Positions 2,749 to 55,908 of a stretch of DNA of 64,000 nt are shown here, one piece after another; position 1 is the stretch's first letter, and each line of letters opens with the position of its first letter. A program made the position numbers and the translations under genes. This DNA is from Escherichia virus TH54. The notes below the pieces were generated by a model. It saw only the letters and a list, made by a program, of their open reading frames with translations. It searched no databases and was not told where the DNA came from. The stretch lies in sequence record MT446420.1; one strand, written 5' to 3'.

Positions 2749-3111
2749 CTATTTGAAAGCTTTTTGTAGAAGTTCAATGATTTGGTCGACGTTATTAGCA
2801 TCCACAACACAATTAATAGAAACCGCCCCCGAAGGTGTTTTTGCATAATTGGAGTATTCACGGAAGCAATAAAACTCTTCTTCACTAAGTTCAAAATAAT
2901 CATCACCCATGCCATCATCATTATAGATTGCACCATTAGCACAAATGATTTCGGTTACATAATCATAGCCGTCTGCACTTGATATTGATTTAACTTCAAA
3001 CCAACCGCCATTTTCTTGGATGATGTCGACCATACTAGCATTCGATGAACTAATATCAATGAAAGATTTAATACGATGTGGATTGAACTCATATTTTTTG
3101 CCGATTTCCAT
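2749..3111 (-). CDS. hypothetical protein, paralog of 2031..2402
   Basis: 120 aa; ATG at 3111 confirmed; promoter/leader cassette upstream. Confidence 0.5.
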   Translation of the reverse strand: MEIGKKYEFNPHRIKSFIDISSSNASMVDIIQENGGWFEVKSISSADGYDYVTEIICANGAIYNDDGMGDDYFELSEEEFYCFREYSNYAKTPSGAVSINCVVDANNVDQIIELLQKAFK

Positions 3112-3149
3112 TTTTATTTCCTCAGTTGTTATCAGTAGTTGATGGAATC

Positions 3150-3179
3150 ATTATGCCTTAGCTCAAAGGACTTGTACAC
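3150..3179 (-). promoter_or_regulatory. early promoter cassette after the gene 32 terminator
   Basis: Minus-strand AAAAAGTAGTGTACAAGTCCTTTGAGCTAAGGCATAAT then leader CATCAACTACTGA. Confidence 0.5.
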
Positions 3180-3193
3180 TACTTTTTGAAAAT

Positions 3194-3215
3194 AAAAAAG
3201 GGACCCGAAGGTCCC
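3194..3215 (-). terminator. intrinsic terminator after gene 32
   Basis: Minus-strand GGGACC-TTCG-GGTCCC then T-run. Confidence 0.6.
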
Positions 3216-3220
3216 CTATA

Positions 3221-4132
3221 TTAAAGGCCAGCCAGCAGGTCGTCGAGACCATCATCGGAAGGCTCTGGAGTGCTTGGAGCAGTCGCAGTGCGTTCAGACT
3301 TAGCAGGTTTGCTGGAAGCGAAATCTTCCATATCTTTATCAAAATCGTCCAGGTCAGCGCCCAGTTTATCAGCTTGTGCAGCAGCTTTAGAAGCAGCACC
3401 GCCGAGAGCAGCTGTACCCATTACTTTAGAGAATTTCTTCTGATTCTCTTCAAGGGATTTAAATACCAGCAATTCATTCAGGTCAGACATTTCGTCCCAA
3501 AGTTTTTTCTGGAATGCTTCATCATTGATACCAGCGATTTCAGACTGGTTCATGAATTTGGAATCATCGTAGTTTTTATAACCGGAAACCAGTTTAGATT
3601 TCAGTACAAAGTTTGCACCTTCAAAAGGACAAGTTACATCAATAGCTGTTTCGCCCATATCAACATCGACTTCAACCATCTGGTTGATTTTGTCCATGAT
3701 TTTCTTGCCGAAGCGATATTTGAATACTTGACCTTCGTTAGACGGAACAGCAGGGTCTTTAATGACCAGGATGTTAGCCCAGTAAGAAGTATTACGCTTC
3801 AGTTTACGATATTCGGATTCGTTTGTGTTGTACAGGTCATTCTTATTCATGTACGCACACACAGGGCAGTTTTCATAATCGCCGTGGGTAGAAGTACAGT
3901 TTTCAATATACCATTGACCGCCATTTTTAAAGCCGTGGTTAACGAGCTTGATGAACGGAGATGGATTTTCTTCATTCTTGGAAGGCAGGAAACGAATAAC
4001 CGCAGAACCGACGCCATCAGTATCTTTCAGTTTCCATTCTTTTTTATCGTCAGAAGAGAAACCAGAACCACCTTTCAGAGCGTTAAGGGAAGCAGCCAGG
4101 TCAGCAGGGTTTTTACGTTTAAACATAGACAT
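3221..4132 (-). CDS. 32: single-stranded DNA-binding protein gp32
   Basis: MFKRK...AVIRFLPSK...[13 protein letters not shown]...YWANILV...[11 protein letters not shown]...DDLLAGL collinear with T4 gp32. Confidence 0.95.
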
Positions 4133-4192: not shown

Positions 4193-4861
4193 TCAAAGTG
4201 CTTGAAGCGTTATTTGACAGTTTTTAACGGTCTCGATGAACAATTTACGAGCTTCAAGAGAATCGATATTTAAGATTTTCTTATAGGCATTTAGTTTGGT
4301 TGAATACTTTTCCCAAACCAAGTCGTTAGTCTGTTCATCATGTTTATTTATAATATCTAAAAATGAATCAAGCAAACAAAACGTTTCAAATGAGATAACA
4401 TTCGATTGGAGAAGTTTGAAAATATAACTTGTGTTTACTTTAGTATTATACTCGAAAATCTCTTGAAGCGATTTGACTTCGACTTTCTTACTGAAGTAAT
4501 AGATATTCTTTATATCATCTTCGTATACTTGTTTAATTCTTTTAAGTCTGCCAATGTATTCACGATAAAATATCAGAGCATCGGCATCGCTTATATCACC
4601 TATCCATGCATCCTGGTTCGCGACCAGGTTTGACATGAATATTAACGTTAATTCTTTGAGAGTGTACTTATCGCTAAGCTTTTCGAAAAAATACTTATCG
4701 CGACGTTTTTGATAAGCACTATCGGAGATTCGCATGGTCCAGTTATATTTGATAATATCATAACGACCCGAAAAATGCTGTTTGATGGATAAGTACAGTT
4801 GGTATACTGATTTACCATTTATATATCGGTTGTTATTTGGAGGCATGCGAATCGTAATCAT
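4193..4861 (-). CDS. 59: helicase loader gp59
   Basis: MITIRMPPNNNRYINGKSVYQLYL...YFFEKLS...NLVANQDAWIGDISDADALIFYREYIGRLK matches T4 gp59. Confidence 0.95.
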   Translation of the reverse strand: MITIRMPPNNNRYINGKSVYQLYLSIKQHFSGRYDIIKYNWTMRISDSAYQKRRDKYFFEKLSDKYTLKELTLIFMSNLVANQDAWIGDISDADALIFYREYIGRLKRIKQVYEDDIKNIYYFSKKVEVKSLQEIFEYNTKVNTSYIFKLLQSNVISFETFCLLDSFLDIINKHDEQTNDLVWEKYSTKLNAYKKILNIDSLEARKLFIETVKNCQITLQAL

Positions 4862-5151
4862 AACAAAAAGTCCAGCGTATTAGTTTTCTGTGTACGAGAC
4901 ATACTCGGACGAAGCAGGTTATCATCATAGGCTTCGTTCATAATCTTATCAATGATTCCCGCAGGAATGTATCGCGCAAAATTACCTTCAGGAATTCCAC
5001 GTTCTTCCAACCAGGCAGTCGCAGCTTCCAGATAAGACATTTCAGTTGACTCAACCATGGCTTCAATATCAAGCCCGTTTTGCTGCTTACTAATCGCCCC
5101 GGAAGGCGATTCAGTTTTCTGTGTATCGAAATTAACTAAAGAGGACATCAT
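4858..5151 (-). CDS. 33: late transcription co-activator gp33
   Basis: C-terminal LEAATAWLEE...ARYIPAGIIDK...LLRPSMSRTQ resembles T4 gp33; start set to ATG 5151 (GGAG SD); track ORF 4858..5244 extends further. Confidence 0.7.
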   Translation of the reverse strand: MMSSLVNFDTQKTESPSGAISKQQNGLDIEAMVESTEMSYLEAATAWLEERGIPEGNFARYIPAGIIDKIMNEAYDDNLLRPSMSRTQKTNTLDFLL

Positions 5152-10357: not shown

Positions 10358-11494
10358 ATGGAAAGATTGATGGCAGAATTTGGACAGGGATATGTCCAAG
10401 TTCCCGTGCTTTCTGAAAATAACGCAGTAAGATATAAATTGTCGATTGCAGGGACTTGTACCAAATCGCCAAACTATCCCTACGTTAAGTTTCAAGATGA
10501 GGCCTTCGGGCCTCAAAACTTCCAGAATGGATTAAACCTTATTGAGATTGACCCTGTAACAAATACAATCACTGCAACTAAAAACTATGGCTTCACAAAA
10601 GACTATGATATTATTTCTCAGGCCTTTGTGACTTATATTAATTCCATCCCGGCGGGTAGGATTGTTTGTTTGATATCACAGGGGAAATTGAATGCTTCCC
10701 AAACTTTAATTGATTGGTTCAGAACACATGGCTCGACTGCATTTCCAGATAAGTGGCTGATTGACCAAGTTGATACTTCGTATTCGGCATTTTATATAAC
10801 TGGTCGAAATGCAATCGTTAAAGAGCATGTGCTGTATAACGATGGGGTAACTGTTGAGGATGTATTGACTCCATTGGAAATGGTGTATGACGACTTCGCT
10901 GATGTGGGTGGCACAGGATTTCCTCTGCGCGTCGTGGAAGACGAAAACACATATTACAGTAATAGTACACAAGAAATAAAACGTTTCCCTACAAACTCTC
11001 CTATCACTCCTGCGGCCGATTATAATATGGCTCCGGGTGATACTTTTTACCTGAAGTTTCAGCTGACATATGACCAGGCACTTAAAGACCTCGGAACAAC
11101 TCAGATGTCTGTTCGATTCTTTAATGGACAGACTATGATTCAGTCAAACGATTATGATATTCCTGCTACGGGTCAAGCAAGCCCTCCGGCTGGTGCATGG
11201 ATGACGTTTGAACGTTACGTTGTTGTTCCACCTGGTGCAGATGGATTTACATTATATGCAAGGAAGACCGTGGCTGCTGGACAAGGTGGAGTAAGGAATA
11301 TTTTCTTTACAGAAATCGCTCGCCAAGAAACACAGGCTAAATCCGCAGAAATCGGTGTTAACGGCATAAGAATGGTTGTTGCTGGAGAACCCGGTAATAT
11401 GGGTAATGTTATTGCTCAATTGAATGATAAAAATGCAACAAGGTCCAGTCAGTCTGGATTTGTATTTGCCGCGGAATTCCGTGAAAAAGAATAA
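10358..11494 (+). CDS. 35: long tail fibre hinge protein gp35
   Basis: 378 aa, position and size as T4 gp35; followed by terminator hairpin. Confidence 0.8.
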   Translation: MERLMAEFGQGYVQVPVLSENNAVRYKLSIAGTCTKSPNYPYVKFQDEAFGPQNFQNGLNLIEIDPVTNTITATKNYGFTKDYDIISQAFVTYINSIPAGRIVCLISQGKLNASQTLIDWFRTHGSTAFPDKWLIDQVDTSYSAFYITGRNAIVKEHVLYNDGVTVEDVLTPLEMVYDDFADVGGTGFPLRVVEDENTYYSNSTQEIKRFPTNSPITPAADYNMAPGDTFYLKFQLTYDQALKDLGTTQMSVRFFNGQTMIQSNDYDIPATGQASPPAGAWMTFERYVVVPPGADGFTLYARKTVAAGQGGVRNIFFTEIARQETQAKSAEIGVNGIRMVVAGEPGNMGNVIAQLNDKNATRSSQSGFVFAAEFREKE

Positions 11495-15845: not shown

Positions 15846-15850
15846 GGAGA

Positions 15851-15870
15851 GGGGCTTCGGCCCCTTTTGA
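15851..15870 (+). terminator. hairpin/terminator between 37 and 38
   Basis: GGGGC-TTCG-GCCCC then TTTTGA, directly before the gp38 start. Confidence 0.5.
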
Positions 15871-20365: not shown

Positions 20366-20463
20366 TAGTCTTTATCTATCTTATTACCAATAAACATACC
20401 AACAATCACACCCGCGATTGCCGCGAAAATACAAAGCAATGCAAACTCAACTCCAAAACTCAT
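20365..20463 (-). CDS. hypothetical small membrane protein (32 aa)
   Basis: Hand-translated MSFGVEFALLCIFAAIAGVIVGMFIGNKIDKD; ATG overlaps gp52 stop (ATGA); terminator hairpin follows. Confidence 0.35.
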   Translation of the reverse strand: MSFGVEFALLCIFAAIAGVIVGMFIGNKIDKD

Positions 20464-21839
20464 AGAGCCTCCAAATCATTAAGGTATTCAGTTTTAACAT
20501 CAGTTGTCTTCCAGTACTCATGCTCGGCTTTCTTAGCCTTTGCTTCGTCTGCAAGCTTCTTGGCTTCATCAGAGGTCATATGGTAGATGTTCATCGCCAC
20601 TAACTTCTCTGCATAATCGCCATATATTTCACTCGCCTGGAGCTCCTCAATCAACTTCTTACGAGGTTTCCCCTGGATAACAACCTTACCATCAATCACT
20701 TCTTTAATAAAGAAGACTTTTGCCCGGGCTAGTTTAAACGCGGCTTCAGTTTCTTTAATCTTACTGTCAATTCGCACTTGAACATAAGTCTTACGGACAT
20801 CAACGAAATCGCGAATCAGGTCAAGCGTGTTGGTGTATTCAGCCAGTTTGCCTTTATGATTAAGCACCGTTAAGTTCTGGGAGAGCTTCTCAATCAGACC
20901 AAAGTCTTTCATGATTTTCTCATGATTTTCTTCTTCAGTGCCATCCAACTTGTATTCCTTACGGAATTTAATCTTAAACCCAAAACCATGCTCGCCACAG
21001 TTATCTTTCCAGGTGATAAAACCTTTCTCTTCCAGCGGGTCCAGGATTTTACTTGTATACTTTTCCAGGTTCCATTGGACTGGAATTTCAGTAATTTCCA
21101 TTTGAGTTCTGGAAGTCATTTTGTACGTGCCATGAAGCTCATACTTACCAGGCTCTTCCAGCTCAACAACTTTACCACGGAATTCTGGATATTTTACTTT
21201 CGGAGCAACCGGCTCACGACCTTCCACGATAGCTTTAACAGCTTCCTTGACGTCCTGGAACGAATGAGGAAGAATATCAGTAGCAAAGCCAACAGCAATC
21301 CCAGAAGTGGCGTTAAGTAATACAGTAGGAATAACAGGAAGATAAAAAGCAGGAGGCTTATGTTCTTCATCAGGATGGACCGGAGCATATTCTGTATCCT
21401 TAAACAAGTTGTAAAAGTTCTTTGAAACCCTTGCGAATACATAACGAGCTGATGATGCTTCTGGCACCATTCTGGAACCAAAGTTACCTTGCCCATCAAA
21501 CATAGGATATTCATTTTTATATGTTGCGACCAAACCAGAAGTTGCTTCTTCCGCTGATGCTTCACCATGGTGATAACCATAATCAGCTACGCCACCTGCG
21601 ATGGATGCAACCTTATGGAATTTATTCTTATCACCACGTGCCAGGTCTAATGCTCTCGCCATAACAAATCTGTGAACCGGTTTAAAACCATCAATCATGT
21701 TTGGGATGGCACGACCTTCCACAGTGTAGATAGCATATGACAATGCTTCCACATCAATAATGTCTTTTAGACTGCGTGGGTTAAGGGACCCCATGGAATC
21801 ACTGAACTGTTTGGACATCATACTTAAAACGTCAGACAT
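20460..21839 (-). CDS. 52: topoisomerase II medium subunit gp52
   Basis: ...AIPNMIDGFKPVHRFVMARALDLARG.K.KFHK.ASIAGGVAD.GYHHGE... collinear with T4 gp52. Confidence 0.9.
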   Translation of the reverse strand: MSDVLSMMSKQFSDSMGSLNPRSLKDIIDVEALSYAIYTVEGRAIPNMIDGFKPVHRFVMARALDLARGDKNKFHKVASIAGGVADYGYHHGEASAEEATSGLVATYKNEYPMFDGQGNFGSRMVPEASSARYVFARVSKNFYNLFKDTEYAPVHPDEEHKPPAFYLPVIPTVLLNATSGIAVGFATDILPHSFQDVKEAVKAIVEGREPVAPKVKYPEFRGKVVELEEPGKYELHGTYKMTSRTQMEITEIPVQWNLEKYTSKILDPLEEKGFITWKDNCGEHGFGFKIKFRKEYKLDGTEEENHEKIMKDFGLIEKLSQNLTVLNHKGKLAEYTNTLDLIRDFVDVRKTYVQVRIDSKIKETEAAFKLARAKVFFIKEVIDGKVVIQGKPRKKLIEELQASEIYGDYAEKLVAMNIYHMTSDEAKKLADEAKAKKAEHEYWKTTDVKTEYLNDLEAL

Positions 21840-21847
21840 ATATCACC

Positions 21848-21988
21848 TTACCAGATTAACGAATGTACTGCCATTATAGCATCAGAAATAAAAAGCACAA
21901 CCTGCACTAATGCAAACACAATTCCATAATACAGCGCCACCAATAAGGCAGCAAGGGCTAACGAGTAGCCCAAGATTTTCTTAATCAT
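21848..21988 (-). CDS. hypothetical small membrane protein (46 aa)
   Basis: Hand-translated MIKKILGYSLALAALLVALYYGIVFALVQVVLF...; below track cutoff. Confidence 0.3.
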   Translation of the reverse strand: MIKKILGYSLALAALLVALYYGIVFALVQVVLFISDAIMAVHSLIW

Positions 21989-22148
21989 TGCTCACCGCGG
22001 AAACCATAAATTTAACAAAGGCATCAACTACAAACCATCCACACAAGAAATAAACAAACCACATAGGCGGGATGAAGACACCTGCGACAAAAAGAGTTAC
22101 TAAAACAATGACCGCCACTAGATAAATGAATGAAAAGACTGATGTCAT
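21981..22148 (-). CDS. small membrane protein (position of T4 ac)
   Basis: Track ORF 21981..22169 starts at TTG; ATG 22148 with GAGGA SD gives 55 aa MTSVFSFIYLVAVIV... Confidence 0.4.
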   Translation of the reverse strand: MTSVFSFIYLVAVIVLVTLFVAGVFIPPMWFVYFLCGWFVVDAFVKFMVSAVSND

Positions 22149-22155
22149 ATTTTCC

Positions 22156-22236
22156 TCAAGGGCGTCCAAAGACGCCAGTTAATTTAAGATTATGACGATG
22201 CCATTGCATCACATGTTCGTTATGGAAATTACTCAT
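22156..22236 (-). CDS. stp: Stp peptide (26 aa), activator of the host PrrC anticodon nuclease
   Basis: Hand-translated [26 protein letters not shown], near-identical to recalled T4 Stp; one nt after ndd stop; missed by ORF track. Confidence 0.8.
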
Positions 22237-22237
22237 A

Positions 22238-22687
22238 TTAATAGCTCTGCAGAATGAATTTAAAGTTATCAGCAAGCATGCGATTCATTTCTGAAAGGGT
22301 CTGGCAATCAGAACTATGTGAGCGAGTGAACGCCATCGCAATTTGACCTTTACCATAACCAGTTGTCAAAGGTTTCATTTTAGAAACTGGAACAAACAGG
22401 ACTTCATAGATAACCCCATTGTTCGCCATTGTGCGAGACAGTTGAGAACGTTGTTTGCGGATGTGACTTAATACAGTGTCAAACCCTTGTTGCGAGCGTT
22501 GGTTACCAACATAAAAACGTGCGGCAACAATACGTGATTCGCCTTCACCTTTGACCATGAAATAAAAACCTGGTTGGGTGATAGCTTCTTTAGTCGGGCG
22601 ACCTGCAACATAATTACCATTATGGATGTAAGCAACAGTAGTAGCGCCAGCATTCAGTACGTCACGACGGGTCATATAAGTAGACAT
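22238..22687 (-). CDS. ndd: nucleoid disruption protein Ndd
   Basis: ...NAGAT...PGFYF.V......[28 protein letters not shown]...MKPLTTG.GKGQ.A.AFTR.H....[18 protein letters not shown] matches T4 Ndd. Confidence 0.9.
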
Positions 22688-22720
22688 ATTAATTTCCTCA
22701 GTAAGTTAAAGTTTTGTGCT

Positions 22721-22758
22721 CCAGTGGGGTCATTATACTCTGACCCCAAGAGTTTGTA
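22721..22758. repeat. 38-bp promoter/hairpin cassette, copy 1 (identical to 33493-33530)
   Basis: ccagtggggtcattatactctgaccccaagagtttgta; inverted repeat GGGGTCA/TGACCCC around a TATAAT. Confidence 0.9.
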
Positions 22759-22760
22759 TA

Positions 22761-55890: not shown

Positions 55891-55908
55891 ATGGGGCCGA
55901 AGCCCCAT
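55891..55908 (-). terminator. RNA hairpin between 45 and 44 (weak terminator or processing structure)
   Basis: Minus-strand ATGGGGC-TTCG-GCCCCAT, no strong T-run. Confidence 0.4.

Follow-up and report, generated by a model that had tools for sequence, protein, structure and literature searches.

The DNA analysed here, which we call the window, is the whole stretch of 64,000 nucleotides from Escherichia virus TH54 (sequence record MT446420.1). A short frame read as the stp gene lies on the minus strand of this window directly behind ndd, and the genes and features of the locus are arranged as follows.

22732..22760, minus strand: promoter-like site TATACA-17-TATAAT upstream of ndd, recognised by consensus only (10/12 matches)
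22238..22687, minus strand: ndd (nucleoid disruption protein), 61% identical to T4 Ndd (E = 2e-69), with the stop codon TAA at 22240..22238
22236..22156, minus strand: stp coding sequence of 81 bases, 26 codons plus TGA, with ATG at 22236..22234 and TGA at 22158..22156
22161..22176, minus strand: hairpin GGCGUC-UUUG-GACGCC in the last stp codons, from G21 to the first base of P26
22146..22158, minus strand: stp/next-gene junction TGAGGAAAATATG, comprising the stp stop, a GAGGA Shine-Dalgarno sequence and the ATG of the next ORF
21981..22148, minus strand: hydrophobic ORF of 55 aa at the position of T4 ac, whose ATG at 22148 is the annotated start in VR25 and VR7
21848..21988, minus strand: counterpart of 52.1, from the ORF list and synteny
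20460..21839: counterpart of gene 52, from the ORF list and synteny

From ndd through stp, the small membrane ORF, and 52.1 to gene 52, the order is that of T4 and of the relative VR25, in keeping with T-even synteny. The original prediction placed the stp start one nucleotide past the ndd stop and the stp stop inside the Shine-Dalgarno sequence of the next gene, and both junctions are built in this way: the single base 22237 separates the TAA of ndd (22240..22238) from the ATG of stp (22236..22234), and the TGA of stp (22158..22156) overlaps the GAGGA that precedes the next ATG (22148..22146). The upstream junction thus reads TAA-T-ATG in the window, in contrast to the overlapping TAATG of T4. 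T4, Gaprivervirus, Dhakavirus, and the variants ending in GVFGR* all have the identical downstream junction, TGAGGAAAATATG, despite differing downstream genes. The 55-residue ORF behind this junction was considered as T4 ac and rejected, as BLASTP against T4 Ac gives no alignment. After the identical junction, at least four different small genes occur in the relatives, namely T4 ac, a VR25/VR7 type, a VR20/VR26 type, and a JS98 type. By its appearance, the stretch from the hairpin to the Shine-Dalgarno sequence looks like a module boundary.

The 26-residue frame at 22156-22236 had been proposed with its strand left unstated. Its translation holds on the minus strand, and the plus-strand frame over the same positions contains an internal stop. 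Reading starts at the ATG at 22236 and runs for 26 codons that open with the conserved MSNFHNEH; T4 has no counterpart of a longer, TTG-initiated frame (39 aa) that covers stp. The T4 Stp sequence given in the original prediction proved to be correct when stp of NC_000866, whose product is NP_049878, was translated, and the claimed identity of 20 of the 26 residues was reproduced, with differences at residues 12, 13, 15, 19, 20, and 26. Searched against Pfam, the window peptide matches the anticodon nuclease activator family PF08133 (Nuclease_act) over residues 1-25 of 26, with 55.3 bits (E = 4.4e-15), where the gathering score (cut-off) is 25. It also matches PHROG 6763 ('activator of host PrrC lysyl-tRNA endonuclease') with E = 2e-19. 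NCBIfam holds no model that matches any form of Stp, and a PDB sequence search with Stp returned matches at chance level only (a plant complex I subunit, E ~0.3), with no related chain and no structure of Stp, free or in complex.

Over the 2.5 kb around stp, the DNA shares 93% identity with VR25 and VR7, both Gaprivervirus phages, and 97.5% with TH57, whose record is without annotation. The identical 26-residue peptide occurs in 37 phage records among the matches listed, and 39 records match at 99% or more. The carriers of the identical peptide are Gaprivervirus phages (VR7, VR20, VR25, VR26, SP18, and others) and phages of the Dhakavirus type (JS98 and IME281). VR25 Stp is 100% identical to the window peptide and has the same neighbouring genes, with DNA that is 93% identical over the 2.5 kb; JS98 Stp is likewise 100% identical, but the gene upstream of stp differs. 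The DNA differences between the stp genes of VR25 or JS98 and that of the window are synonymous only. To judge from these comparisons, the window stp is the allele common to Gaprivervirus and Dhakavirus, carried by a Gaprivervirus-like T-even phage.

RefSeq names the identical peptide of VR25 (YP_009210023.1) and JS98 (NC_010105) 'activator of host PrrC lysyl-tRNA endonuclease'. Annotation of stp in the 37 records listed is uneven: two name it as the PrrC activator, six call it 'hypothetical protein', 21 are annotated records with no CDS at stp, and eight are records without any annotation. The finding is therefore already known, since the identical peptide is present and named in public phage genomes, and the missing annotation of stp is a frequent gap for a gene of 81 nt, being neither a new gene nor new biology.

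We compared the variable sites of stp among phages with the same peptide. In the five distinct DNA versions of the window-type stp, 6/6 variable sites are synonymous third positions, whereas by chance only 18% of all single-base changes, or 31% of transitions, in the stp ORF would be synonymous. The T4-type set shows a similar picture, in which 7/10 variable sites are synonymous and the remainder consist of one L17F replacement and a Q26/stop polymorphism. Because all six variable sites among the phages with the window peptide are synonymous, the stp frame is under purifying selection.

These data bear on the question of whether the frame is a chance ORF with a mere likeness to Stp. Its length of just 26 codons would fit such an origin, and small ORFs arise commonly by chance in this region, where 57 ORFs of at least 20 aa were counted within 3.5 kb. 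A chance ORF is nevertheless hard to reconcile with the Pfam E-value of the peptide, with a position that agrees with T4, with the identical peptide in 37 of the records listed, and with purifying selection on the frame; we regard its probability as negligible, and the family-model scores together with synteny effectively refute it already. Membership in the Stp family follows from the curated family models, the length, the synteny, and the selection on the frame. The identity proposed in the original prediction is thus supported by PF08133, PHROG 6763, the length, the place after ndd, the synonymous-only variation, and the RefSeq naming of the identical peptide, and by its sequence the 81-base frame is a genuine copy of the T4 stp gene.

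Stp homologues are also present beyond the T-even phages, in Kagunavirus, Webervirus, N5822 (an Enterobacter phage of the Drexlerviridae), Tempevirinae, Tlsvirus, Skatevirus, and Veterinaerplatzvirus, with lengths of 25-35 aa. The siphophage peptides of Tlsvirus, Stevie-type T1-like phages, Webervirus, Kagunavirus, and Skatevirus have the core (S/N)-(F/W/Y)-H-N-E-H-(V/I)-M-(Q/R)-(F/W) in common, and, as in the window peptide, W12, H13, or H15 is found in them. They differ from it in their C-terminal halves, in the N-terminal extension of some of them, in the absence of the hairpin, and in their genomic context. In the free-standing copies of siphophages, the ATG is preceded by an AAGGAG or GGAG of its own, unlike in the window stp. 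The Webervirus form scores 23.1 bits against PF08133, which is just below the cut-off of 25, and is placed in PHROG 28068 ('unknown function'). The occurrence of Stp-like peptides with polynucleotide kinase in T1-like siphophages has already been published for TLS and Stevie (PMC4319613), and T1-like phages also carry a polynucleotide kinase/phosphatase (PMC4319613).

Several siphophage and metagenome loci have an arrangement of their own. In Salmonella phage KFSST1, the Stp-like ORF (301-381) is located ~250 bp upstream of a gene for a 'Lar-like restriction alleviation protein' (634-654), and this region suggests a small anti-restriction gene cluster. In N5822, the Stp-like ORF (2501-2596) is located ~500 bp upstream of an ORF (3087-3623) for a 178-aa 'polynucleotide kinase', which aligns to the phosphatase half of PseT only (residues about 155-300). 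The 'polynucleotide kinase' homologue of the Webervirus loci lies ~9 kb from the Stp-like ORF. In one IMG/VR metagenome contig (225-450), the Stp-like N-terminus is fused in frame to the next ORF to give a 74-aa product, and the stop found in the Kagunavirus relatives is missing.

The hairpin GGCGTC-TTTG-GACGCC that had been noted in the coding region is present at 22176..22161, where it encodes G-V-F-G-R and the first base of codon 26 and ends 3 nt before the Shine-Dalgarno sequence of the next gene. Its predicted energy is -10.8 kcal/mol in the window and -11.5 kcal/mol in T4, and it appears in both short and long folds of the two sequences. Among 200 shuffled sequences, five fold as well as the stp hairpin, and the RNA fold of the whole ORF is not unusual (z = -0.9 in the window and -1.1 in T4). 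The loop is UUCG in T4 and JS98, forming a C(UUCG)G hairpin, and UUUG in the window through the synonymous change of TTC to TTT. The stem differs among the T-even copies by two changes only, both of which keep the pairing: GGC to GGT converts a C-G pair to U-G, and the GVFGR* variants have C16 changed to T, which converts a G-C pair to G-U. Both are one-sided, and no compensatory double change was found in the stem among the T-even copies. We roughly estimate a ~16% chance that the four wobble sites of the stem would show no disruptive change under neutrality. The case for selection on the hairpin at the RNA level is weak, and the amino-acid conservation of GVFGR confounds the signal.

The hairpin is not found in all homologues. 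Kagunavirus copies encode the same G-V-F-G through GGG/GGA and GTG codons and form no hairpin. In the Tequatrovirus SHFML-11 (locus 301-387), residues 1-18 of Stp are normal, and the C-terminus is longer and different (NFGILGSKNS), with no 3' hairpin. Neither the hairpin nor GVFGR is thus universal in T-even phages.

Perfect 6-bp G+C-rich hairpins with 4-nt loops occur five times in the window (3200-3215, 10499-10514, 15850-15865, 22161-22176, and 55892-55907), compared with 0.16 expected from shuffles; four have TTCG/CGAA loops, and the stp hairpin has TTTG. C(UUCG)G hairpins of T4 mRNAs are reportedly the subject of work by Tuerk and colleagues in 1988. The stp hairpin resembles that type in its G+C-rich 6-bp stem, its tetraloop, and its placement at a gene boundary, but differs from it in the UUUG loop and in its location inside a coding sequence. 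This enrichment, five against 0.16 expected, places the stp hairpin in a hairpin class known from T4.

A role as an intrinsic terminator on the sense strand was rejected, as there is no U-tract, the hairpin is followed by CUUGAGGAAAAUAUG, and no minus-strand terminator is predicted there. The antisense (plus) strand of the hairpin is flagged as terminator-like, with a weak tail, AGTTAATTTA, in the window and a stronger one, TTTAGTTTTA, in T4. Two such terminator-like hairpins on the plus strand, at 21955-21971 and 22161-22176, lie inside the minus-strand 52.1-like ORF and stp, respectively, and both are present at the same places in T4 (T4 locus coordinates 4817-4833 and 5011-5026). These two hairpins may stop antisense or late-strand transcripts. 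The stp hairpin most likely acts as an RNA structure; it may insulate or stabilise the mRNA before the next ribosome site, stop antisense transcripts, or mark a module boundary.

It could be argued that the conserved feature of this region is the RNA itself, that is, the hairpin and the Shine-Dalgarno junction, and that the short frame is either untranslated or yields a product without a role in this phage. Indeed, no part of the region is better conserved among T-even phages than the hairpin and the TGAGGAAAATATG junction, the window is strongly enriched in G+C-rich tetraloop hairpins, and stp lacks its own Shine-Dalgarno sequence. However, the synonymous-only variation spans the whole frame, including codons 1-20 outside the hairpin. 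The T4 peptide itself was found to be necessary and sufficient for activation (PMC3014915). Furthermore, the siphophage homologues, which are without the hairpin, keep the peptide (with GVFG written in other wobble bases) and have their own Shine-Dalgarno sequences, which favours a translated peptide over a pure RNA element. We therefore consider a purely RNA-level explanation very improbable.

No Shine-Dalgarno sequence is recognisable before stp in the window. This lack, together with an stp ATG one base past the ndd stop, makes it probable that translation of stp is coupled to the translation and termination of ndd. The promoter-like site at 22732..22760 is a candidate promoter of an ndd-stp transcript, and the minus strand shows no terminator-like site from there to stp. 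The promoter scan as a whole was not enriched, with four sites found against 4.8 expected. At 22716-22760 (minus strand), a GGGGTCA/TGACCCC stem carries the -10 hexamer of the promoter-like site in its loop. T4-type phages have early-promoter stem-loop cassettes, and this stem resembles them. In JS98 and a second phage locus, the sequence upstream of stp is not the 3' end of ndd but another sequence, which ends in frame with …AKCVVCM or …AKCVVSM and has no stop for 16-19 codons upstream of stp. In loci of the JS98 type, stp may therefore lie in another gene context or be N-terminally extended.

Compared with T4 Stp, the window peptide carries the substitutions F12W, Y13H, N15H, T19L, K20T, and Q26P; both peptides have 26 residues, and residues 1-11, 14, 16-18, and 21-25 are unchanged. 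The original prediction had the substitutions clustered at residues 12-20, and a comparison of the two T-even alleles bears out this cluster: codons 1-11 and 21-25 differ synonymously only, and codons 12-20 hold five replacements. Several of these replacements are out of reach of a single base change and require two or three (TTC to TGG, ACT to TTA, and AAA to ACT). According to a review (PMC3014915), the function of T4 Stp is carried by the N-proximal 18 residues, most loss-of-activation (suppressor) mutations of T4 stp fall between residues 4 and 14, and loss of the last eight stp codons has only a moderate effect. The window peptide is identical to T4 Stp at 15/18 of the N-proximal residues; the three that differ are 12, 13, and 15, of which 12 and 13 lie within the 4-14 mutational cluster. 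For nine T4-type phages, the same review, published in 2010, called these 18 N-terminal residues 'almost absolutely' conserved (PMC3014915), a statement to which the window allele is an exception.

In an alignment of ten sequences, S2, N3, H5, N6, E7, H8, V9, M10, and K18 are invariant, and all of them are present in the window peptide; this invariance is partly circular at the positions of the motif N-[FY]-H-N-E-H-V-M, with which the IMG/VR loci had been searched. Among five further siphophage homologues, obtained by tblastn with no motif used, the variants S3, G7, and I9 occur. W12, H13, and H15 are each natural states in other members of the family (N5822, Webervirus, INT55, and Mishu). In our reading, the window peptide appears to keep the core of the family and to vary where the family varies, and the allele likely retains the activities of T4 Stp.

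The replacements could also indicate that this allele, with W12, H13, H15, L19, and T20 and also P26, is a specificity variant with a changed spectrum of activity. Such a variant might keep the anti-restriction activity against type IC enzymes and evade PrrC-type guards or trigger them differently, or it might target other type IC enzymes or guard proteins. The five amino-acid changes are confined to codons 12-20, several of them by multi-base changes, next to codons 1-11 and 21-25 that differ synonymously only; residues 12 and 13 lie within the suppressor cluster at 4-14 (PMC3014915); and each allele is otherwise unchanged in many phages, with the identical peptide in 37 listed records. If an arms race had produced such a variant, the dense multi-base replacements in codons 12-20 would be a trace of diversifying selection. 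However, most residues on which PrrC activation depends are required for the inhibition of EcoprrI as well (PMC3014915), so that the two activities would be hard to separate. The substitutions are, moreover, of a conservative kind (an aromatic residue replaced by another or by His), the recurrence of these states in distant members of the family suggests tolerated variation, and the relative VR25 keeps pseT and rnlA, as expected if PrrC-type attack remains a risk. We consider a change of specificity unlikely.

The biology of T4 Stp given in the original prediction, in which EcoprrI restriction is inhibited and PrrC cleavage of tRNA-Lys is triggered, agrees with the review PMC3014915, where Stp inhibits EcoprrI and unmasks PrrC, and Pnk and Rnl1 counter the effect. 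On binding to the type IC restriction-modification complex, T4 Stp inhibits restriction and leaves modification intact; when the host is prr+, PrrC is thereby unmasked and cuts tRNA-Lys 5' to the wobble base, and the cut tRNA-Lys is repaired by T4 polynucleotide kinase and RNA ligase 1 (PMC3014915 and 2025 reviews). The mode of inhibition by Stp is still described as unknown in a 2025 review.

Taking these data together, we hold it to be highly probable that stp is present here in the Gaprivervirus/Dhakavirus allele, is expressed through coupling to ndd, and acts as in T4 by blocking restriction and triggering PrrC. The 26-residue peptide would be an early product of the ndd-stp transcript. 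As in T4 Stp, to which the peptide is homologous, its N-proximal 18 residues would bind the host type IC complex (EcoprrI / EcoR124I family), and this binding would block restriction and leave modification unaffected. In hosts with prrC in the type IC locus, the same binding would unmask the latent PrrC anticodon nuclease, and tRNA-Lys would be cut. Survival of the phage in prr+ hosts would then depend on tRNA repair by its polynucleotide kinase and RNA ligase 1. The data establish the ORF, its place in the family, its synteny, the purifying selection on its frame, and the identity with peptides named in RefSeq; we infer the translation, the molecular target, and the retention of both activities by the window allele.

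With regard to the repair genes, tblastn with PseT and RnlA of VR25 gave no match for pnk (pseT) or rnlA in the window. The relative VR25 encodes both pseT and rnlA. Their absence follows from the extent of the window, as by synteny the two genes would lie 4-9 kb before its start, and it is not evidence that the phage lacks them.

The meaning of the finding is mainly one of annotation hygiene, in that the 81-nt stp is easily missed by routine gene calling and has no CDS in 21/29 annotated records that carry the identical peptide. For the user of such a phage, recognising stp indicates that a type IC anti-restriction peptide is probably carried, and that abortive infection of the prr type may hit the phage if the tRNA repair genes are lost.
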